Source of the DNA: Haloquadratum walsbyi C23
GTDB taxonomy: Archaea > Halobacteriota > Halobacteria > Halobacteriales > Haloferacaceae
DNA length: 32,000 nt
Assembly (NCBI RefSeq): GCF_000237865.1
Contig: NC_017459.1
Coordinates: 2,820,001 to 2,852,000 of the forward strand
Direction: 5' to 3'
The first letter of the stretch is position 1, and each line of letters opens with the position of its first letter. A program made the position numbers and the translations under genes. Below are positions 24,906 to 30,401 of the stretch, one piece after another. Below the pieces are notes generated by a model that made no database searches, was not told the origin of the DNA, and worked only from the letters and a program-made list of their open reading frames with translations.

Positions 24906-25475
24906 TTACAGTTGCTGAATCATCTTCGCATATGTGATTGCATCCAACTCAGTGGTTTGATTATTTGTCTCGATTTGATAAAACCCCTCATGGCGACAGA
25001 CTGGATTGAATCCGGCAGTTTCATACAACGCTCGTGCCGGGCTATTATTGACAGCAACATTGAGTGTAAGTCGAGTTCCAGAATTAAGTCGGGTGAAAAC
25101 CGCATTCAATAATTGAAATCCACGCCTCTGCCGTCGGTAGGTAGGATGGATAACTAACTCGGCAAGGTGTGCGTTCGCTGTCGCATCGGTATTTGATATA
25201 TTTATATTATCAGTGTGTACTTTATCATCTTCATCAGAATAATATTTTGATTCCTCAATAAGATCGGATGTCCTAGGATCGGTCTGCTCGGTACTGGTGA
25301 GCCAAAGTGCATATCCAACAGCATCTGCTGCCTGCGTGGTTGAGACAAGACAATTACCAAGCTTCTGTGTTCTGACAACGGTCCGAAGTAAGTGTGGTGA
25401 CGGTGAGTAAAGATACTGTTGAAGTGATATAAGCCGTGGATAATCTGTAGGATGACTAGAACGGTATGTGTTCAC
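24906..25475 (-). CDS. GNAT-family N-acetyltransferase
   Basis: The acetyl-CoA motif LAELVIHPTYRRQRRGFQLL and the C-terminal NSPARALYETAGF are present. The GTG start overlaps the upstream stop (GTGA). An acidic insert lies in the middle. Confidence 0.75.
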   Translation of the reverse strand: MNTYRSSHPTDYPRLISLQQYLYSPSPHLLRTVVRTQKLGNCLVSTTQAADAVGYALWLTSTEQTDPRTSDLIEESKYYSDEDDKVHTDNINISNTDATANAHLAELVIHPTYRRQRRGFQLLNAVFTRLNSGTRLTLNVAVNNSPARALYETAGFNPVCRHEGFYQIETNNQTTELDAITYAKMIQQL

Positions 25476-26797
25476 AGTAAGGTAATCGCGCTACCGACAC
25501 TCAGGATTGCACCGATGAACGTTGCAGCTAAATTAACTGTCTCATTGCCAACTTTGTCACCCTCAATCGTCGCTCCAAGAATGCTATCAGCTGTCATGCC
25601 AAGAAACCCAGCGATTCCAATTGCTATACTCCCAGTAGCATCCACTGATGGAAACAACGCAAATGCAACAATTCCAATAATGAGCCCACCAAGAATACCG
25701 AATATCTCTCCTTGCCATGTTACCCCACCGTCAGTCCCTGGAGGCACCGGTGTAAATGTTGTAATTAGTCGTGGATTATCATATAATCCACCAAGTTCTG
25801 ATGAGAGTGTATCACTGAGTGCGGCAGCGATTGAGCCAGCGAAAGCATATTGAAATAACACCGGGTCAATAGGGATTGACTCACTTGCTGCGAAGCAGAT
25901 GACACAAATCAGGGCAACGGCAGCGTTTCCAAGAACATTTCCCGTCCCGCGTGCGCCTTCGTTTTCCTCTGCAATGCCTCGTTGTTTCTTCTCATCATAT
26001 CGATATTTTGTCGACAGTGCGCCAAGACTGAAGAAGCTAATAACCACAGCGAACCATCCGAATCCACCAAGGACGATGACAAGCAGACTGAGAAGGACTC
26101 CAGAGAGCATGCCGGCTACAGATGCGGTCCCAAGCGCATATGAGATAAACCCAAGAGCGGCTGTGACAGCAAGTGCCACGCTAAGCTCAATTGCTTCAAC
26201 CCCACTCCCAAGATACGCAAAGAGCCATAATAAAAGTCCACTCGCAAGCATTACAAGCGGATCATCACGTTCAAAAAGCATTTCACGAAGTAATGCTGCG
26301 ACAAGCGCCCCAGCAGTCGCAAGGAAGACATATCGGGGGATTACGACTTGAGATTCAATGATTGTCGCTGTCGTAAATTGTCCAGCAATGCCAGCCAGTG
26401 TCCCAGTGATAACAAATCCAGCAGTCCCGACAAATGGTTCATCAGACGTCTCTGCGATGAGTCGTTTTCCGAGGTTTCCATATGCAAGAATAAGAACCGA
26501 TGCAACAAACAACTCAACTGGAAGTCCAAGTTCTGTTGATAAAATCGCGAGTCCAGCGGCTGCAAGAGCAAATCCTGCAAGCCCATTTAGTCGACCATCC
26601 TGCCTATCGCCGGGGCGGGCGAATAATTCAAAAATTGGACCGTCGGTGATCAGGAATGCAGCCATGATACCAACAGCGGCGAAGGGTGCGAATGCAGCCT
26701 GACCAAGCACCGGAGCGGTGACCGCCAAGGTCCCAATAAGGGCAAATCCACCAGCCCGCCGGAGCGTAGGTTGCACGTACGCCGCTATCGGCGACAT
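25472..26797 (-). CDS. Polytopic membrane protein with a C-terminal DUF92 (TMEM19/VTE6-like) domain
   Basis: 441-aa ORF. The C-terminal half (GARGTGNVLGNA...AALSDTLSSELG...PPGTDGGVT..G) matches the DUF92 pattern as I recall it. The N-terminal roughly 200 aa is an additional multi-TM region. Confidence 0.7.
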   Translation of the reverse strand: MSPIAAYVQPTLRRAGGFALIGTLAVTAPVLGQAAFAPFAAVGIMAAFLITDGPIFELFARPGDRQDGRLNGLAGFALAAAGLAILSTELGLPVELFVASVLILAYGNLGKRLIAETSDEPFVGTAGFVITGTLAGIAGQFTTATIIESQVVIPRYVFLATAGALVAALLREMLFERDDPLVMLASGLLLWLFAYLGSGVEAIELSVALAVTAALGFISYALGTASVAGMLSGVLLSLLVIVLGGFGWFAVVISFFSLGALSTKYRYDEKKQRGIAEENEGARGTGNVLGNAAVALICVICFAASESIPIDPVLFQYAFAGSIAAALSDTLSSELGGLYDNPRLITTFTPVPPGTDGGVTWQGEIFGILGGLIIGIVAFALFPSVDATGSIAIGIAGFLGMTADSILGATIEGDKVGNETVNLAATFIGAILSVGSAITLL

Positions 26798-26936: not shown

Positions 26937-27545
26937 GTGGGCATTTACGATTGGTATCTCGTATTACGTCATCGATTTCATGACGCAAAGCCACCAGCAC
27001 ATGTGGCTGTGGTCATCACTGAACGAGATTTACTTGAACAGGGCGCATATCAGACGCTCTCGCAATTTCTTAATTGGGCATTCGAATATGGTGCAACACG
27101 AGTAACAATTTCAGTGAGTGTGTTAGATGAGGCAGTAGTCCCAACGCTTGCCCGTGAATTTCGCGATCTCACCACCCCACGATCGATTGTTGTCCGCCAG
27201 CCTAGTAATACTGAACCAGCGGATGCACCGATACAAGTCAACATTGGATTGGGTGGGAAGCGTGAATTTGCAGCAGCCGTCCGCCAGATTGCTGAAGCAG
27301 TTGATGAAGGATCGATTGACCCAGATACAGTTGATGCTGATACAATTGAAGATCGACTTGTTTTTGCTGATGAACCGGATTTAGTCATCAAAACGGGAGC
27401 TGAACGGCTTTCTGATTTCCTTATTTGGCAATCGGTCTATTCGGAATTGTATTTTACGGATGTAAATTGGCGGGATTTCCGCCGCCGAGATTACGTCCGC
27501 GCAGTGATTGATTACCAGAATCGTCAGCGACGGTTTGGACAATGA
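26937..27545 (+). CDS. UppS-fold paralogue lacking the catalytic DGNRR motif (putative non-catalytic cis-prenyltransferase subunit)
   Basis: GTG start. HVAVVITERDLLE replaces HVAIIxDGNRRxA. The C-terminal half (LVIKTGAERLSDFLIWQSVYSELYF..VNWRDF) aligns with UppS. The protein ends in ...NRQRRFGQ, an RXG motif. Confidence 0.7.
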   Translation: MGIYDWYLVLRHRFHDAKPPAHVAVVITERDLLEQGAYQTLSQFLNWAFEYGATRVTISVSVLDEAVVPTLAREFRDLTTPRSIVVRQPSNTEPADAPIQVNIGLGGKREFAAAVRQIAEAVDEGSIDPDTVDADTIEDRLVFADEPDLVIKTGAERLSDFLIWQSVYSELYFTDVNWRDFRRRDYVRAVIDYQNRQRRFGQ

Positions 27546-27578
27546 TGCAGTCGAGTAGGTCTCTGATCGGATTACATA

Positions 27579-28538
27579 TCAGTCGGCACTATCAACCGAG
27601 TCAGTTGGTGAGTCGTGTTGTCGGGAGAGCTCAGCAGATACTTCTCGAGCACCTGTTGGGGAAAGTTGCTCTCGGAGTCGACCCGCAACTTGCCGTGCAT
27701 CCTCAATCTCAGTTTTAGCAACAGCCCTGACGAGTGCAACAGCACGCTTGGTGCGTGATTGACGCCATGATTCCTCTCGTGACTCATATGTACGAAGACC
27801 CCGCAGGAAGTCTATTTTTGAGAATTCCGGCCAGTATGGCGCACAGAAGTACACAGCTGCCTCGTTTCCATTTGCATGCCACGGAAGGAAGTTCGATGTT
27901 CGTTCATCACCACCTGTTCGAACAATCAAATCAACGTCACGGGTTGTATGTCTTGAGAGCCGACACTCAACCGTCTCAGCATCAACTGTGGATGGATCAA
28001 GTTCACCAGCATCGACATCGTGTGCAACACTACGAGCAGCACGGAGGAGTTCAGATCGACCACCATACGCCAACGCAATATTAAGCCGAAAGTCATCGTA
28101 TGCAGCAGTCTGTGATTCAGCGTACTCAACAGCGCTTTGGACCCGCTGTGGAAGTCGATCAATATCACCAATCGCACCAATTCGGACGGAGTTTTCGTGT
28201 GTCCGTTCGGCGTCAGCAAACTCGTATAGTTTCGACTCAATGAGATCAAAAAGTGGCTGTAGTTCCGCATCTGGGCGAGTGAAATTTTCTGTTGAAAATG
28301 CATACAGAGTCAATTCTTCGATTCCAAGTTCTTCACACCACTCAAGAACACGTTCTGTTGTCTGTGCACCTTCGCGATGCCCCTCATGTGCATCGTTACC
28401 CTGTTCTCTAGCATAGCGACGATTCCCATCTTGGATAATGGCAACGTGCGTCGGTCCTTCTGTGATTTGACGTTGGAGCGCTCGCCCATAGGCGCGCTGT
28501 ATAACACCACGGACACGCCGAAACATACTCATATACAA
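27579..28538 (-). CDS. uppS: Cis-prenyltransferase (undecaprenyl/polyprenyl diphosphate synthase family), catalytic type
   Basis: The motifs HVAIIQDGNRRYA, LYAFSTENF.R and IVRTGGDERTSNFLPW are present. It has a roughly 70-aa C-terminal tail. Alternative ATG starts lie at 28532 and 28526. Confidence 0.9.
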   Translation of the reverse strand: MYMSMFRRVRGVIQRAYGRALQRQITEGPTHVAIIQDGNRRYAREQGNDAHEGHREGAQTTERVLEWCEELGIEELTLYAFSTENFTRPDAELQPLFDLIESKLYEFADAERTHENSVRIGAIGDIDRLPQRVQSAVEYAESQTAAYDDFRLNIALAYGGRSELLRAARSVAHDVDAGELDPSTVDAETVECRLSRHTTRDVDLIVRTGGDERTSNFLPWHANGNEAAVYFCAPYWPEFSKIDFLRGLRTYESREESWRQSRTKRAVALVRAVAKTEIEDARQVAGRLREQLSPTGAREVSAELSRQHDSPTDSVDSAD

Positions 28539-28737
28539 TGATGCTGGTTTGTATGTCTCTTCTGTTTTATCCCTCTCAAAAGAGCATTATGAGATTGATC
28601 AAATATTTAATATATTTACGGAGAGCATTAATGATAGCAAAATCGAATATAGATCTAGATGACAATTCCCTAGTAGTATCATTGATGTCAGAGTGCCGCT
28701 GAAGTGCGAGTGATACTTGTTTTACCGGCTCATACAT

Positions 28738-29142
28738 ATGCTTATGACCGATTCTGTCGATAAAGATCTCTATCAACGGACAATGGCTCTTATCGAGCCT
28801 GGAGATATCGATCTTGTTGGGACAGTTGTACACACAGATCTCACTGGCGAAGAGGATCTTGAGATGCAGGAGCTCACTGTAAGTATTAATGAGTGTCTTG
28901 CAAGTCATATCGGAAAGGGAGAAACATATATCTATGCTGGGAATGACTCCTCAGAGTTTGCATCGAATCAATTTCAAGGACTGACTATTGATGATGAGTC
29001 ATTTGTGTGGGAATGTCAACAGCTCCTTCGCAAGGGAACATTTGATCTTGTGTTTTATTATGAAGCCGGACCGACACAAGCGGCTATCGCAGACGATCTT
29101 GAGTCGATTGAATATATAAAAAATGTCACAACAGTTCCATAG
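28738..29142 (+). CDS. Conserved haloarchaeal hypothetical protein
   Basis: I trimmed ORF 28717..29142 (TTG start) to the ATG at 28738 (MLMTDSVDKDLYQRTMALIEPGDIDL...). The protein is acidic. FVWECQQLLRKGTFDLVFYYEA looks like a conserved core, but I do not know the family number with confidence. Confidence 0.6.
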   Translation: MLMTDSVDKDLYQRTMALIEPGDIDLVGTVVHTDLTGEEDLEMQELTVSINECLASHIGKGETYIYAGNDSSEFASNQFQGLTIDDESFVWECQQLLRKGTFDLVFYYEAGPTQAAIADDLESIEYIKNVTTVP

Positions 29143-29279: not shown

Positions 29280-30401
29280 ATGACAAAGACACAGGGGAAT
29301 AACTCCACCAGCACCACTGGAAATGGCGAAACGAGTAATGAGACCGATAGTGATACCTTATCAACAGTCGATCGTGCTGTGATTAATGCATTTCAAGGTG
29401 GATTTCCAGTCGTCAATCGACCGTTTGAATCGGCTGCAACCGCATTAAAAGATCGTGGTGTCGATATCACACCAGAGGAACTTTTGAATCGGATCCGGAC
29501 GCTGAATCATAATGATGTCCTAAGCCGTTTTGGTGCGCTGGTGAATGCAGAAGAAATCGGAGGAACAGCAACATTGGTTGCAATGCATGCCCCTAAGAAT
29601 CGGTTTGATTCGGTTGTTGAGGCAGTGAATGACCACCGTGAAGTCGCGCATAATTACGAACGTGAACATCCACATCTTAATATGTGGTTTGTTGTTAGCG
29701 TCGCGGATGCTGATCGAGTTGAGACAGTTCTCAACGAGATTGAACAAGAAACGGGACAGGAGACATATAATATGCCGAAACAGCAAGAATTCCGTGTCGA
29801 GGCAAAGTTCCTTCTTGATGGTCCGATTGCAGATGGTGATATCGATTGCTCAGACATTGGTCCAACGCCGGAACCAATAAATCGACAAACGCTAACACCC
29901 CCAGAGCGTGATCTAATCGTTGAAATTCAGGGAGGATTACCGATCAGTGAAACACCGTATCATGATGTTGCTGACGCGATTGAGGCGGACCCATCATGGG
30001 TAATTGAGACAATTGCTCGATTTAATCTCGAAGGCAAAATTCGACGAGTCGGCGTCGTTCCGAATCATTACTCACTTGGATACACTGAAAATGGGATGAC
30101 AGTCTGGGATGTTCCTGATGCTCAAGTTGAAACGATTGGTCCGGCAGTTGCCTCACTTCCGTTTGTGACACATTGTTATCATCGACCACGACATGAGGAT
30201 GTCTGGTCGTATAATTTCTTTGCGATGACGCATGGTCGCTCGGTTGAGGAAAGTGAGAGGCGAATCCAAATGATCTATGAAATAATGAATGAGCATTGGG
30301 ACGTTGCTGATGATGATTGGGATTCACTCTTCTCAACGCAGATTTTGAAGAAAACGGGTATTCGACTTGATGAGCGCGCAACTGCGAATACAGTCTCATA
30401 G
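29280..30401 (+). CDS. ahbAB: Siroheme decarboxylase, fused AhbA/AhbB (NirDL/GH-like) type
   Basis: Two tandem Lrp/AsnC-like HTH plus effector modules are present (INAFQGGFPVVNRPF...VAHNYEREH and IVEIQGGLPISETPY...VTHCYHRPR). The gene lies beside sirC and hemA. Confidence 0.8.
   Translation: MTKTQGNNSTSTTGNGETSNETDSDTLSTVDRAVINAFQGGFPVVNRPFESAATALKDRGVDITPEELLNRIRTLNHNDVLSRFGALVNAEEIGGTATLVAMHAPKNRFDSVVEAVNDHREVAHNYEREHPHLNMWFVVSVADADRVETVLNEIEQETGQETYNMPKQQEFRVEAKFLLDGPIADGDIDCSDIGPTPEPINRQTLTPPERDLIVEIQGGLPISETPYHDVADAIEADPSWVIETIARFNLEGKIRRVGVVPNHYSLGYTENGMTVWDVPDAQVETIGPAVASLPFVTHCYHRPRHEDVWSYNFFAMTHGRSVEESERRIQMIYEIMNEHWDVADDDWDSLFSTQILKKTGIRLDERATANTVS

Follow-up and report, generated by a model that had tools for sequence, protein, structure and literature searches.

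A convergent gene pair of Haloquadratum walsbyi probably encodes a two-subunit cis-prenyltransferase and adjoins a conserved DUF92 membrane-protein gene

In the eukaryotic cis-prenyltransferase formed by NgBR and DHDDS, the C-terminal RxG motif of the accessory subunit is essential for activity, and a role in isopentenyl diphosphate binding and active-site closure has been proposed for it; in homodimeric enzymes with visible C-termini, the arginine of this motif coordinates Mg2+ via water. A two-subunit enzyme has also been described in Methanosarcina acetivorans, where a yeast triple mutant did not grow unless MA3723 and MA4402 were expressed together, neither protein alone being sufficient, and where the H29, R221 and G223A mutations of MaUPPS-B each lowered activity (bioRxiv 10.1101/139675). 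The same preprint, from 2017, predicted heteromeric cis-prenyltransferases for ‘Halomebacteria and Archaeoglobaceae’, with one orthologue lacking RxG and the other resembling NgBR/Nus1 (bioRxiv 10.1101/139675). Reviews name three archaeal heteromers as tested, those of M. acetivorans, Methanosarcina mazei (MM_1083/MM_0618) and Archaeoglobus fulgidus (Af1219/Af0707). Here we analyse two convergent genes of the haloarchaeon Haloquadratum walsbyi C23 that an earlier note, made from the DNA letters alone, had put forward as a candidate heteromeric cis-prenyltransferase with the M. mazei enzyme as its precedent, a precedent that the reviews bear out. The genes lie in a stretch of 32,000 nucleotides (NC_017459.1, positions 2,820,001 to 2,852,000 of the forward strand), which we call the window and in whose numbering all H. 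walsbyi positions are given. ‘Halomebacteria’ we take to be Cavalier-Smith’s class uniting haloarchaea and Methanomicrobia.

The elements of the pair are, in the window:

27579 to 28538, minus strand: candidate catalytic subunit gene (DHDDS/Rer2/MaUPPS-A type), maximal open reading frame of 319 amino acids with a TTG start
28416 to 28430, minus strand: DGNRR, catalytic aspartate loop of the catalytic subunit, from the translation
27762 to 27770, minus strand: S257-W-R259, at the site of R-x-G in homodimeric enzymes, placed by HMMER and by MAFFT against E. coli and A. baumannii UppS
27582 to 27761, minus strand: C-terminal extension of the catalytic subunit, residues 260–319, mostly helical
26937 to 27545, plus strand: candidate accessory (non-catalytic) subunit gene (NgBR/Nus1/MaUPPS-B type), 202 amino acids with a GTG start
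27000 to 27038, plus strand: HVAVVITERDLLE, degenerate remnant of the catalytic loop in the accessory subunit; its H22 is equivalent to His29 in MaUPPS-B and His100 in NgBR
27531 to 27539, plus strand: R199-F-G201, the RxG motif of the accessory subunit, followed by Q202 and the stop codon, from the translation
27546 to 27578, no strand: spacer of 33 nt between the convergent stop codons

The catalytic gene encodes a complete cis-prenyltransferase domain with the full set of catalytic residues that we checked. Its reading frame matches PF01255 over profile positions 1–216 of 219 (E 1e-68) and TIGR00055 (uppS) with 235.7 bits, and the solved structures closest to it by sequence are bacterial undecaprenyl diphosphate synthase (UPPS; E ~3e-47) and then human DHDDS (E ~1e-39); given strong family matches for both reading frames of the pair, chance is not an issue. 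The DGNRR loop falls within HVAIIQDGNRRYA (28410–28448, minus strand). In a three-way MAFFT alignment, D37, N39, R41, H54 and S82 of the 319-residue frame stand opposite D26, N28, R30, H43 and S71 of E. coli UppS, and N85, R88, R207, R213 and S215 opposite N74, R77, R194, R200 and S202. Our neighbourhood survey covered 80 Halobacteria genome loci encoding an orthologue of the accessory gene, and the 57 catalytic orthologues that we compared all come from these loci. The DGNRR pattern was matched in 51 of the 57 reading frames, the remaining six giving no match, and it is also kept in Methanosarcinales-type relatives. Because the orthologues are 313–317 residues long and begin at an equivalent methionine, the true start of the H. 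walsbyi gene is probably the ATG at 28526, with a product of 315 residues. Databases call the orthologues geranylgeranyl-diphosphate-specific synthases, a name given by annotation and not by assay.

What this protein does not carry is the RxG motif. Opposite R242-F-G244 of E. coli UppS it reads S257-W-R259, and the same position is occupied by E/A-S-W/F in 57 of 57 orthologues. No conserved R-x-G follows the WPxF motif in any of them, a match in the variable tail occurring sporadically in five, and the aligned Methanosarcinales-type relatives lack the motif as well. The earlier note had described a 319-residue frame with the catalytic motif and without RxG; its coordinates, its DGNRR loop and the absence of any conserved RxG equivalent all check out. 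It had also given the protein a tail of about 70 residues. An extension does exist, but it comprises 60 residues after S-W-R, a length of about 70 being reached only by counting from TYESRE.

In the accessory protein, PF01255 covers residues 97–201 only, corresponding to profile positions 115–219 (E 7e-27), while the profile of the accessory family aligns to UPPS over its whole length (E ~1e-35), indicating a cis-prenyltransferase fold. I-T-E-R-D stands in place of the D26 loop of UppS, and the protein has no counterpart to E. coli D26, H43, S71, N74 or R77, the S71/N74/R77 segment being missing altogether. The motif H-[VI]-A-x-[VI]-[IL]-T-E-[RQ]-D-L-L was matched in 69 of the 80 Halobacteria accessory orthologues, which share 62–90% identity and are mostly 202 residues long. 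The C-terminus aligns exactly on the NRERRFG of E. coli UppS, and every one of the 80 orthologues ends in R-R-[FY]-G-x-stop. We thus find the second protein much as the note had it, a paralogue with a degenerate catalytic loop that ends in RFGQ, with RxG at the very C-terminus. Its highest 19-residue Kyte-Doolittle mean is 1.05, below the transmembrane threshold of 1.6 used here, which speaks against an N-terminal transmembrane anchor; neither protein of the pair has a hydrophobic segment of membrane-spanning length. Equivalents of four residues of the isopentenyl diphosphate site are kept, namely K152 (E. coli R194), R157 (R200), S159 (S202) and E170 (E213). Within the region of residues 152–170, the segment KTGAERLSDF is nearly invariant in the aligned Halobacteria orthologues; the R200 and S202 equivalents vary across the wider accessory family.

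A full HMMER scan over 1.84 billion representatives returned many full-length relatives of the 202-residue protein, with 190–225 residues and 32–50% identity, ranked above ordinary synthases that match its C-terminal half only. Family members come from Methanosarcina (barkeri, spelaei), ANME-2/Methanocomedens, Methermicoccaceae, Methanosalsum, Syntropharchaeales, Geoglobus and Ferroglobus, and the non-halobacterial ones listed all lack DGNRR and all end in R-[RK]-[FY]-G-x. With a length of 224 residues, a histidine at position 29 and an arginine at position 221, the Methanosarcina cluster fits the published numbering of MaUPPS-B (MA4402). BLASTP aligns the H. walsbyi accessory protein end to end with the M. 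barkeri member P0433 (34% identity, E 1e-43), and in this alignment H22, R199 and G201 fall on the positions of His29, Arg221 and Gly223. End-to-end homology to the Methanosarcina subunit, together with retention of the residues mutated there, supports a heteromeric enzyme in H. walsbyi.

A 334-residue protein of a Methermicoccaceae metagenome contig is 47% identical to the catalytic protein over the full length, extension included, and has DGNRR and no RxG; a search with this protein found relatives annotated as Methanosarcinales, ANME-2, Methanoperedens, Methanolobus psychrotolerans and Methanocellales. All aligned relatives share the signature SNFLPW-x-ANGNE-x-A-x-YFC-x-P-x-WPEF and have RTY-x-x-RE with no RxG. 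Judged by these alignments, the H. walsbyi catalytic protein belongs to an RxG-less subfamily with Methanosarcinales relatives, the relation being at the level of the subfamily only.

The catalytic residues without RxG thus stand in one protein, and RxG without the catalytic motifs in its neighbour. This motif split, the orthology (for the catalytic protein at subfamily level), the constraint on both proteins and the neighbourhood together argue for the interpretation offered in the earlier note, and we put at roughly 85% the probability that the products of the convergent genes form a single heteromeric cis-prenyltransferase, each being one subunit, an estimate made from sequence comparison. 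In such an enzyme, the ~315-residue protein would hold the sole working active site, its DGNRR loop binding the allylic primer, to which isopentenyl diphosphate units would be added in cis. The 202-residue protein, having the same fold with a dead N-terminal half, would pair with it via the usual cis-prenyltransferase dimer interface and lay its C-terminal R199-F-G201 tail over the catalytic subunit’s site. There the arginine and the glycine backbone may contribute to closing the pocket and to holding the Mg2+-diphosphate of the isopentenyl diphosphate that enters. The expected product would be a C55–C60 polyprenyl diphosphate, from which haloarchaea would make dolichyl phosphate, their sugar carrier for N-glycosylation; a review gives Dol-12 for Halobacterium. 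That the two proteins associate physically, that activity needs the partner and that the tail acts in this way we infer, as we do the primer and the chain length of the product.

The C-terminal extension of the catalytic subunit is itself conserved. It consists of about 45 conserved residues predicted to be helical (the RAVALVRAV...ARxVAGRLRxQL block of the orthologues) and, after this block, a variable and acidic tail with AD as its usual last residues. The Methermicoccaceae and Methanosarcinales relatives have the extension in common, with a conserved [VI]-E-x-E-[DE] turn. In an AlphaFold model of the 315-residue protein, computed with 77 orthologues (predicted local distance difference test score (pLDDT) 67.5, predicted template modelling score (pTM) 0.58), the core is well predicted and the extension forms helices at 237–287 and 290–305 of the 315-residue numbering (pLDDT 60–81). 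The top Foldseek matches of this model in the PDB are human DHDDS structures (6w2l_A and 6z1n_A), with 303–306 aligned columns at a root-mean-square deviation of ~9.6 Å versus ~226–238 columns for bacterial UPPS; the DHDDS matches span the extension, which the bacterial enzymes do not have. Searched by sequence against solved structures, the extension alone gave no match to DHDDS, so that its homology to DHDDS depends on a model of moderate confidence and on Foldseek, and a DHDDS-like nature of the extension is suggestive only.

The arrangement of the two genes is conserved as well. Their stop codons, TGA at 27543–27545 in the accessory gene and, in the catalytic gene, the complement of tca at 27579–27581, agree with the tail-to-tail placement 33 nt apart that the earlier note had read. 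Counting as neighbours those catalytic genes that lie no more than 4 kb from the accessory gene, we found a catalytic orthologue downstream at 57 of the 80 Halobacteria loci; without exception the two genes are on opposite strands, and in 36 of the 80 the gap between them is below 300 nt. The convergent orientation makes this a conserved neighbourhood rather than an operon. Scans for promoters and terminators near the two genes stayed at background level, and the G+C content along the window is 44–50%. On the Methermicoccaceae metagenome contig mentioned above (locus L091, 1552–5422), a DUF92 gene on the minus strand and the accessory gene on the plus strand are followed by one 191-residue gene and the convergent 334-residue PF01255 gene. 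This is the layout of the window, and the three-gene arrangement therefore appears to predate the Halobacteria.

The least expected result of the analysis concerns the third gene of this arrangement, a DUF92 gene. In Halobacteria, ANME-2, Archaeoglobaceae and Methermicoccaceae, this gene and the accessory gene stand head to head. In the window and at loci of other archaea (L081 to L091, each with its own numbering), the gene is found at:

25472 to 26797, minus strand, window: gene for a polytopic DUF92/TIGR00297 membrane protein of 441 amino acids, head to head with the accessory gene
8566 to 9963 of L081 (ANME-2): DUF92 gene, head to head with the accessory gene
3847 to 4959 of L085: DUF92 gene, head to head with the accessory gene
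1746 to 2486 of L088: DUF92 gene, head to head with the accessory gene
1693 to 2961 of L089: DUF92 gene, head to head with the accessory gene
1549 to 2937 of L090: DUF92 gene, head to head with the accessory gene
1552 to 2949 of L091 (Methermicoccaceae): DUF92 gene, head to head with the accessory gene

At 63 of the 80 Halobacteria loci, some of them without a catalytic gene nearby, DUF92 adjoins the accessory gene and diverges from it. Outside the Halobacteria, where we sampled the neighbourhood in 10 archaeal lineages, the head-to-head pair occurs in seven, among them ANME-2, Ferroglobus placidus, Methermicoccaceae and three further archaeal lineages; in this sample, DUF92 is absent from beside the accessory gene in M. 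barkeri, Syntropharchaeales and Methanosalsum. At the ANME-2 locus, a 365-residue gene (L081, 10733–11830, minus strand) is convergent with the accessory gene, where Halobacteria have the catalytic gene. It has no Pfam match and is no cis-prenyltransferase, and we ruled it out as a catalytic subunit.

The H. walsbyi DUF92 protein matches PF01940 over residues 211–425 (E 8e-60) and TIGR00297 with 178.8 bits, below the cut-off of 205.85; its N-terminal ~206 residues have no Pfam match, and most DUF92 copies carry an extra N-terminal membrane domain of 160–220 residues with no family match. Invariant polar residues of the DUF92 half include K270, R283, N287, D329, E334 and D404, a set that would fit an enzyme. 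Compared with solved structures, the family profile found no relative. The plant phytyl-phosphate kinase VTE6 is, we presume, a member of the DUF92 family; our literature searches found no paper linking VTE6 to DUF92. We regard the DUF92 gene as a candidate functional partner of the heteromer and suggest, tentatively, that the three genes form a conserved module in which the soluble heteromer works with DUF92 as a membrane dock or as a polyprenyl or dolichyl (phosphate) kinase. As a dock, DUF92 could stand in for the transmembrane anchor of eukaryotic NgBR; as a kinase, it could feed or recycle the lipid. Either role, if true, would give archaeal DUF92 a function and fill a gap in archaeal dolichyl phosphate metabolism.

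Several observations weigh against a heteromer. At 23 of the 80 loci (including those of Halorubrum, Haloparvum and Halopenitus), some of which are contig ends, the accessory gene has no catalytic neighbour within 4 kb, and convergent genes cannot be co-transcribed. A chain fusing the two proteins, folded without an alignment, reached a pLDDT of 40.7 and a pTM of 0.33 and is unusable as a model of the complex. Our literature searches found no experimental test of a haloarchaeal pair, just as the author of the earlier note had known of no experimental description in haloarchaea. The isopentenyl diphosphate-site residues kept by the accessory protein may leave room for a role of its own. By score, moreover, the accessory profile is far closer to homodimeric UPPS than to NgBR: its alignment to human NUS1/NgBR, which starts near position 20 and reaches the final residue of both, has E 2.5e-11, versus E ~1e-35 for UPPS, which places the accessory protein much nearer to ordinary synthases. 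Finally, a missing RxG alone is no proof of dependence on a partner, since M. mazei MM_0014 lacks RxG and is listed as homomeric. This last point leads to the reading in which the H. walsbyi catalytic protein works alone as a homodimer, its helical extension replacing the RxG tail, and the paralogue has a separate role, for example in regulation or lipid binding. The conserved extension, the lack of co-transcription and the loci where the genes are not neighbours would all sit well with it. MM_0014, however, is only distantly related to the catalytic protein (60.8 bits, against 164 bits for UPPS), and the catalytic subfamily reaches into Methanosarcinaceae, with Methanolobus, the family of those organisms whose single subunits were insufficient; above all, an RxG-x-stop kept in 80 of 80 accessory orthologues is hard to explain unless it serves a catalytic site. 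We consider a self-sufficient homodimer quite unlikely.

About equally unlikely, in our estimate, is that the main partner of the paralogue is the DUF92 protein, instead of or besides the catalytic subunit, the paralogue acting for instance as the soluble polyprenyl-phosphate-binding subunit of a membrane kinase. The pairing of DUF92 with the accessory gene is indeed more widely conserved, in 63 of the 80 Halobacteria loci and 7 of the 10 other lineages, than that of the accessory with the catalytic gene, and among the other lineages sampled a catalytic gene lies nearby only in Methermicoccaceae. Against this, Methanosarcina, in which the heteromer has been demonstrated, has no adjacent DUF92 gene, and the link between DUF92 and the accessory gene is one of gene context; the DUF92 profile has no relative among solved structures. 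The loss of the N-terminal catalytic motifs and a Pfam match confined to the C-terminal half might also be read as signs of a functionless duplicate in decay, but the selection data contradict this. Between the window and H. walsbyi J07HQW2, the ratio of nonsynonymous to synonymous substitution rates (dN/dS) comes to 0.070 in the accessory gene and 0.066 in the catalytic one, and over 52 genomes the mean identity to the window proteins is 71.9% and 68.2%, respectively, the accessory protein being the more conserved of the two in 46 of the 52. Such strong purifying selection shows that the accessory protein is no relic, and with 62–90% identity and a mostly constant length in Halobacteria, and a family that spans several archaeal classes, decay has a vanishingly small probability. 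A heteromeric cis-prenyltransferase is the explanation that we favour.

Three further genes lie close by. A DUF5778 gene of 141 residues (28717–29142, plus strand) is divergent from the catalytic gene and has a homologue in 29 of the 80 Halobacteria loci. It is followed at 29280–30401 (plus strand) by the gene of a 373-residue protein with two NirDL-like helix-turn-helix and AsnC-type ligand-binding repeats, which resembles a fused, AhbA/AhbB-like siroheme decarboxylase from the alternative haem pathway. On the other side, a reading frame for a GNAT-family acetyltransferase of 189 residues (24906–25475, minus strand) shares 4 nt with the 3' end of the DUF92 gene and has a homologue in 25 of the 80 loci.

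The idea of a heteromer is not new: it was predicted in 2017 for this group of archaea, and such enzymes have been demonstrated for M. acetivorans, M. mazei and A. fulgidus; with this prediction and with proof in sister lineages, the H. walsbyi pair would not surprise a specialist. Its interest lies in part in the pathway, as N-glycosylation of surface proteins in haloarchaea, the S-layer among them, uses dolichyl phosphate as its carrier. A synthase made from two genes would affect annotation, since both genes are now named ‘undecaprenyl diphosphate synthase’, and would bear on genetics in Haloferax and Halobacterium and on heterologous reconstitution of the pathway. The pair would also bring to three the archaeal classes that speak for an origin of the eukaryote-like two-subunit design within Euryarchaeota, and the conserved DUF92 neighbour offers a testable clue to a membrane component still missing from the pathway.

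Among known systems, the Methanosarcina heteromers (MA3723/MA4402 and MM_1083/MM_0618) share with the H. walsbyi pair a DGNRR-bearing catalytic subunit without RxG and a soluble accessory subunit of ~200–225 residues that has no predicted transmembrane segment and an RxG-x end. The catalytic signature and the extension are common to the H. walsbyi protein and to Methanolobus, a member of the Methanosarcinaceae. The two differ in that gene numbers suggest unlinked subunit genes in Methanosarcina, whereas the Halobacteria pair are usually convergent neighbours flanked by DUF92; in M. barkeri, neither the catalytic gene nor DUF92 adjoins the accessory gene. The haloarchaeal proteins are, in addition, acidic, unlike those of the Methanosarcina heteromer. 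The A. fulgidus enzyme (Af1219/Af0707) we compared through the family members of Geoglobus and Ferroglobus, the accessory proteins of these Archaeoglobaceae belonging to the same family as that of H. walsbyi at 31–33% identity; in Ferroglobus, the accessory gene is likewise head to head with DUF92, but no catalytic gene lies near it.

The homomeric M. mazei MM_0014, which needs no partner, resembles the H. walsbyi catalytic protein in being a catalytically competent chain without RxG. It is distant from it, however, with 60.8 bits (7caq_A) against 164 bits for UPPS, and it ends in TLGG with no helical extension, where the H. walsbyi protein continues into a 60-residue helical and acidic one. 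Bacterial UppS of E. coli has the fold and the catalytic residues of the catalytic subunit (E ~5e-47) and also matches the C-terminal half of the accessory subunit, including NR-x-RRFG (E 2.7e-22); UppS, though, unites the catalytic loop and RxG in one chain, whereas in H. walsbyi they are divided between two proteins, neither of which has both. The same division of labour is seen in eukaryotic DHDDS/NgBR (Rer2 or Srt1 with Nus1), from which the H. walsbyi pair differs in that NgBR carries an N-terminal membrane anchor and the haloarchaeal accessory protein does not.

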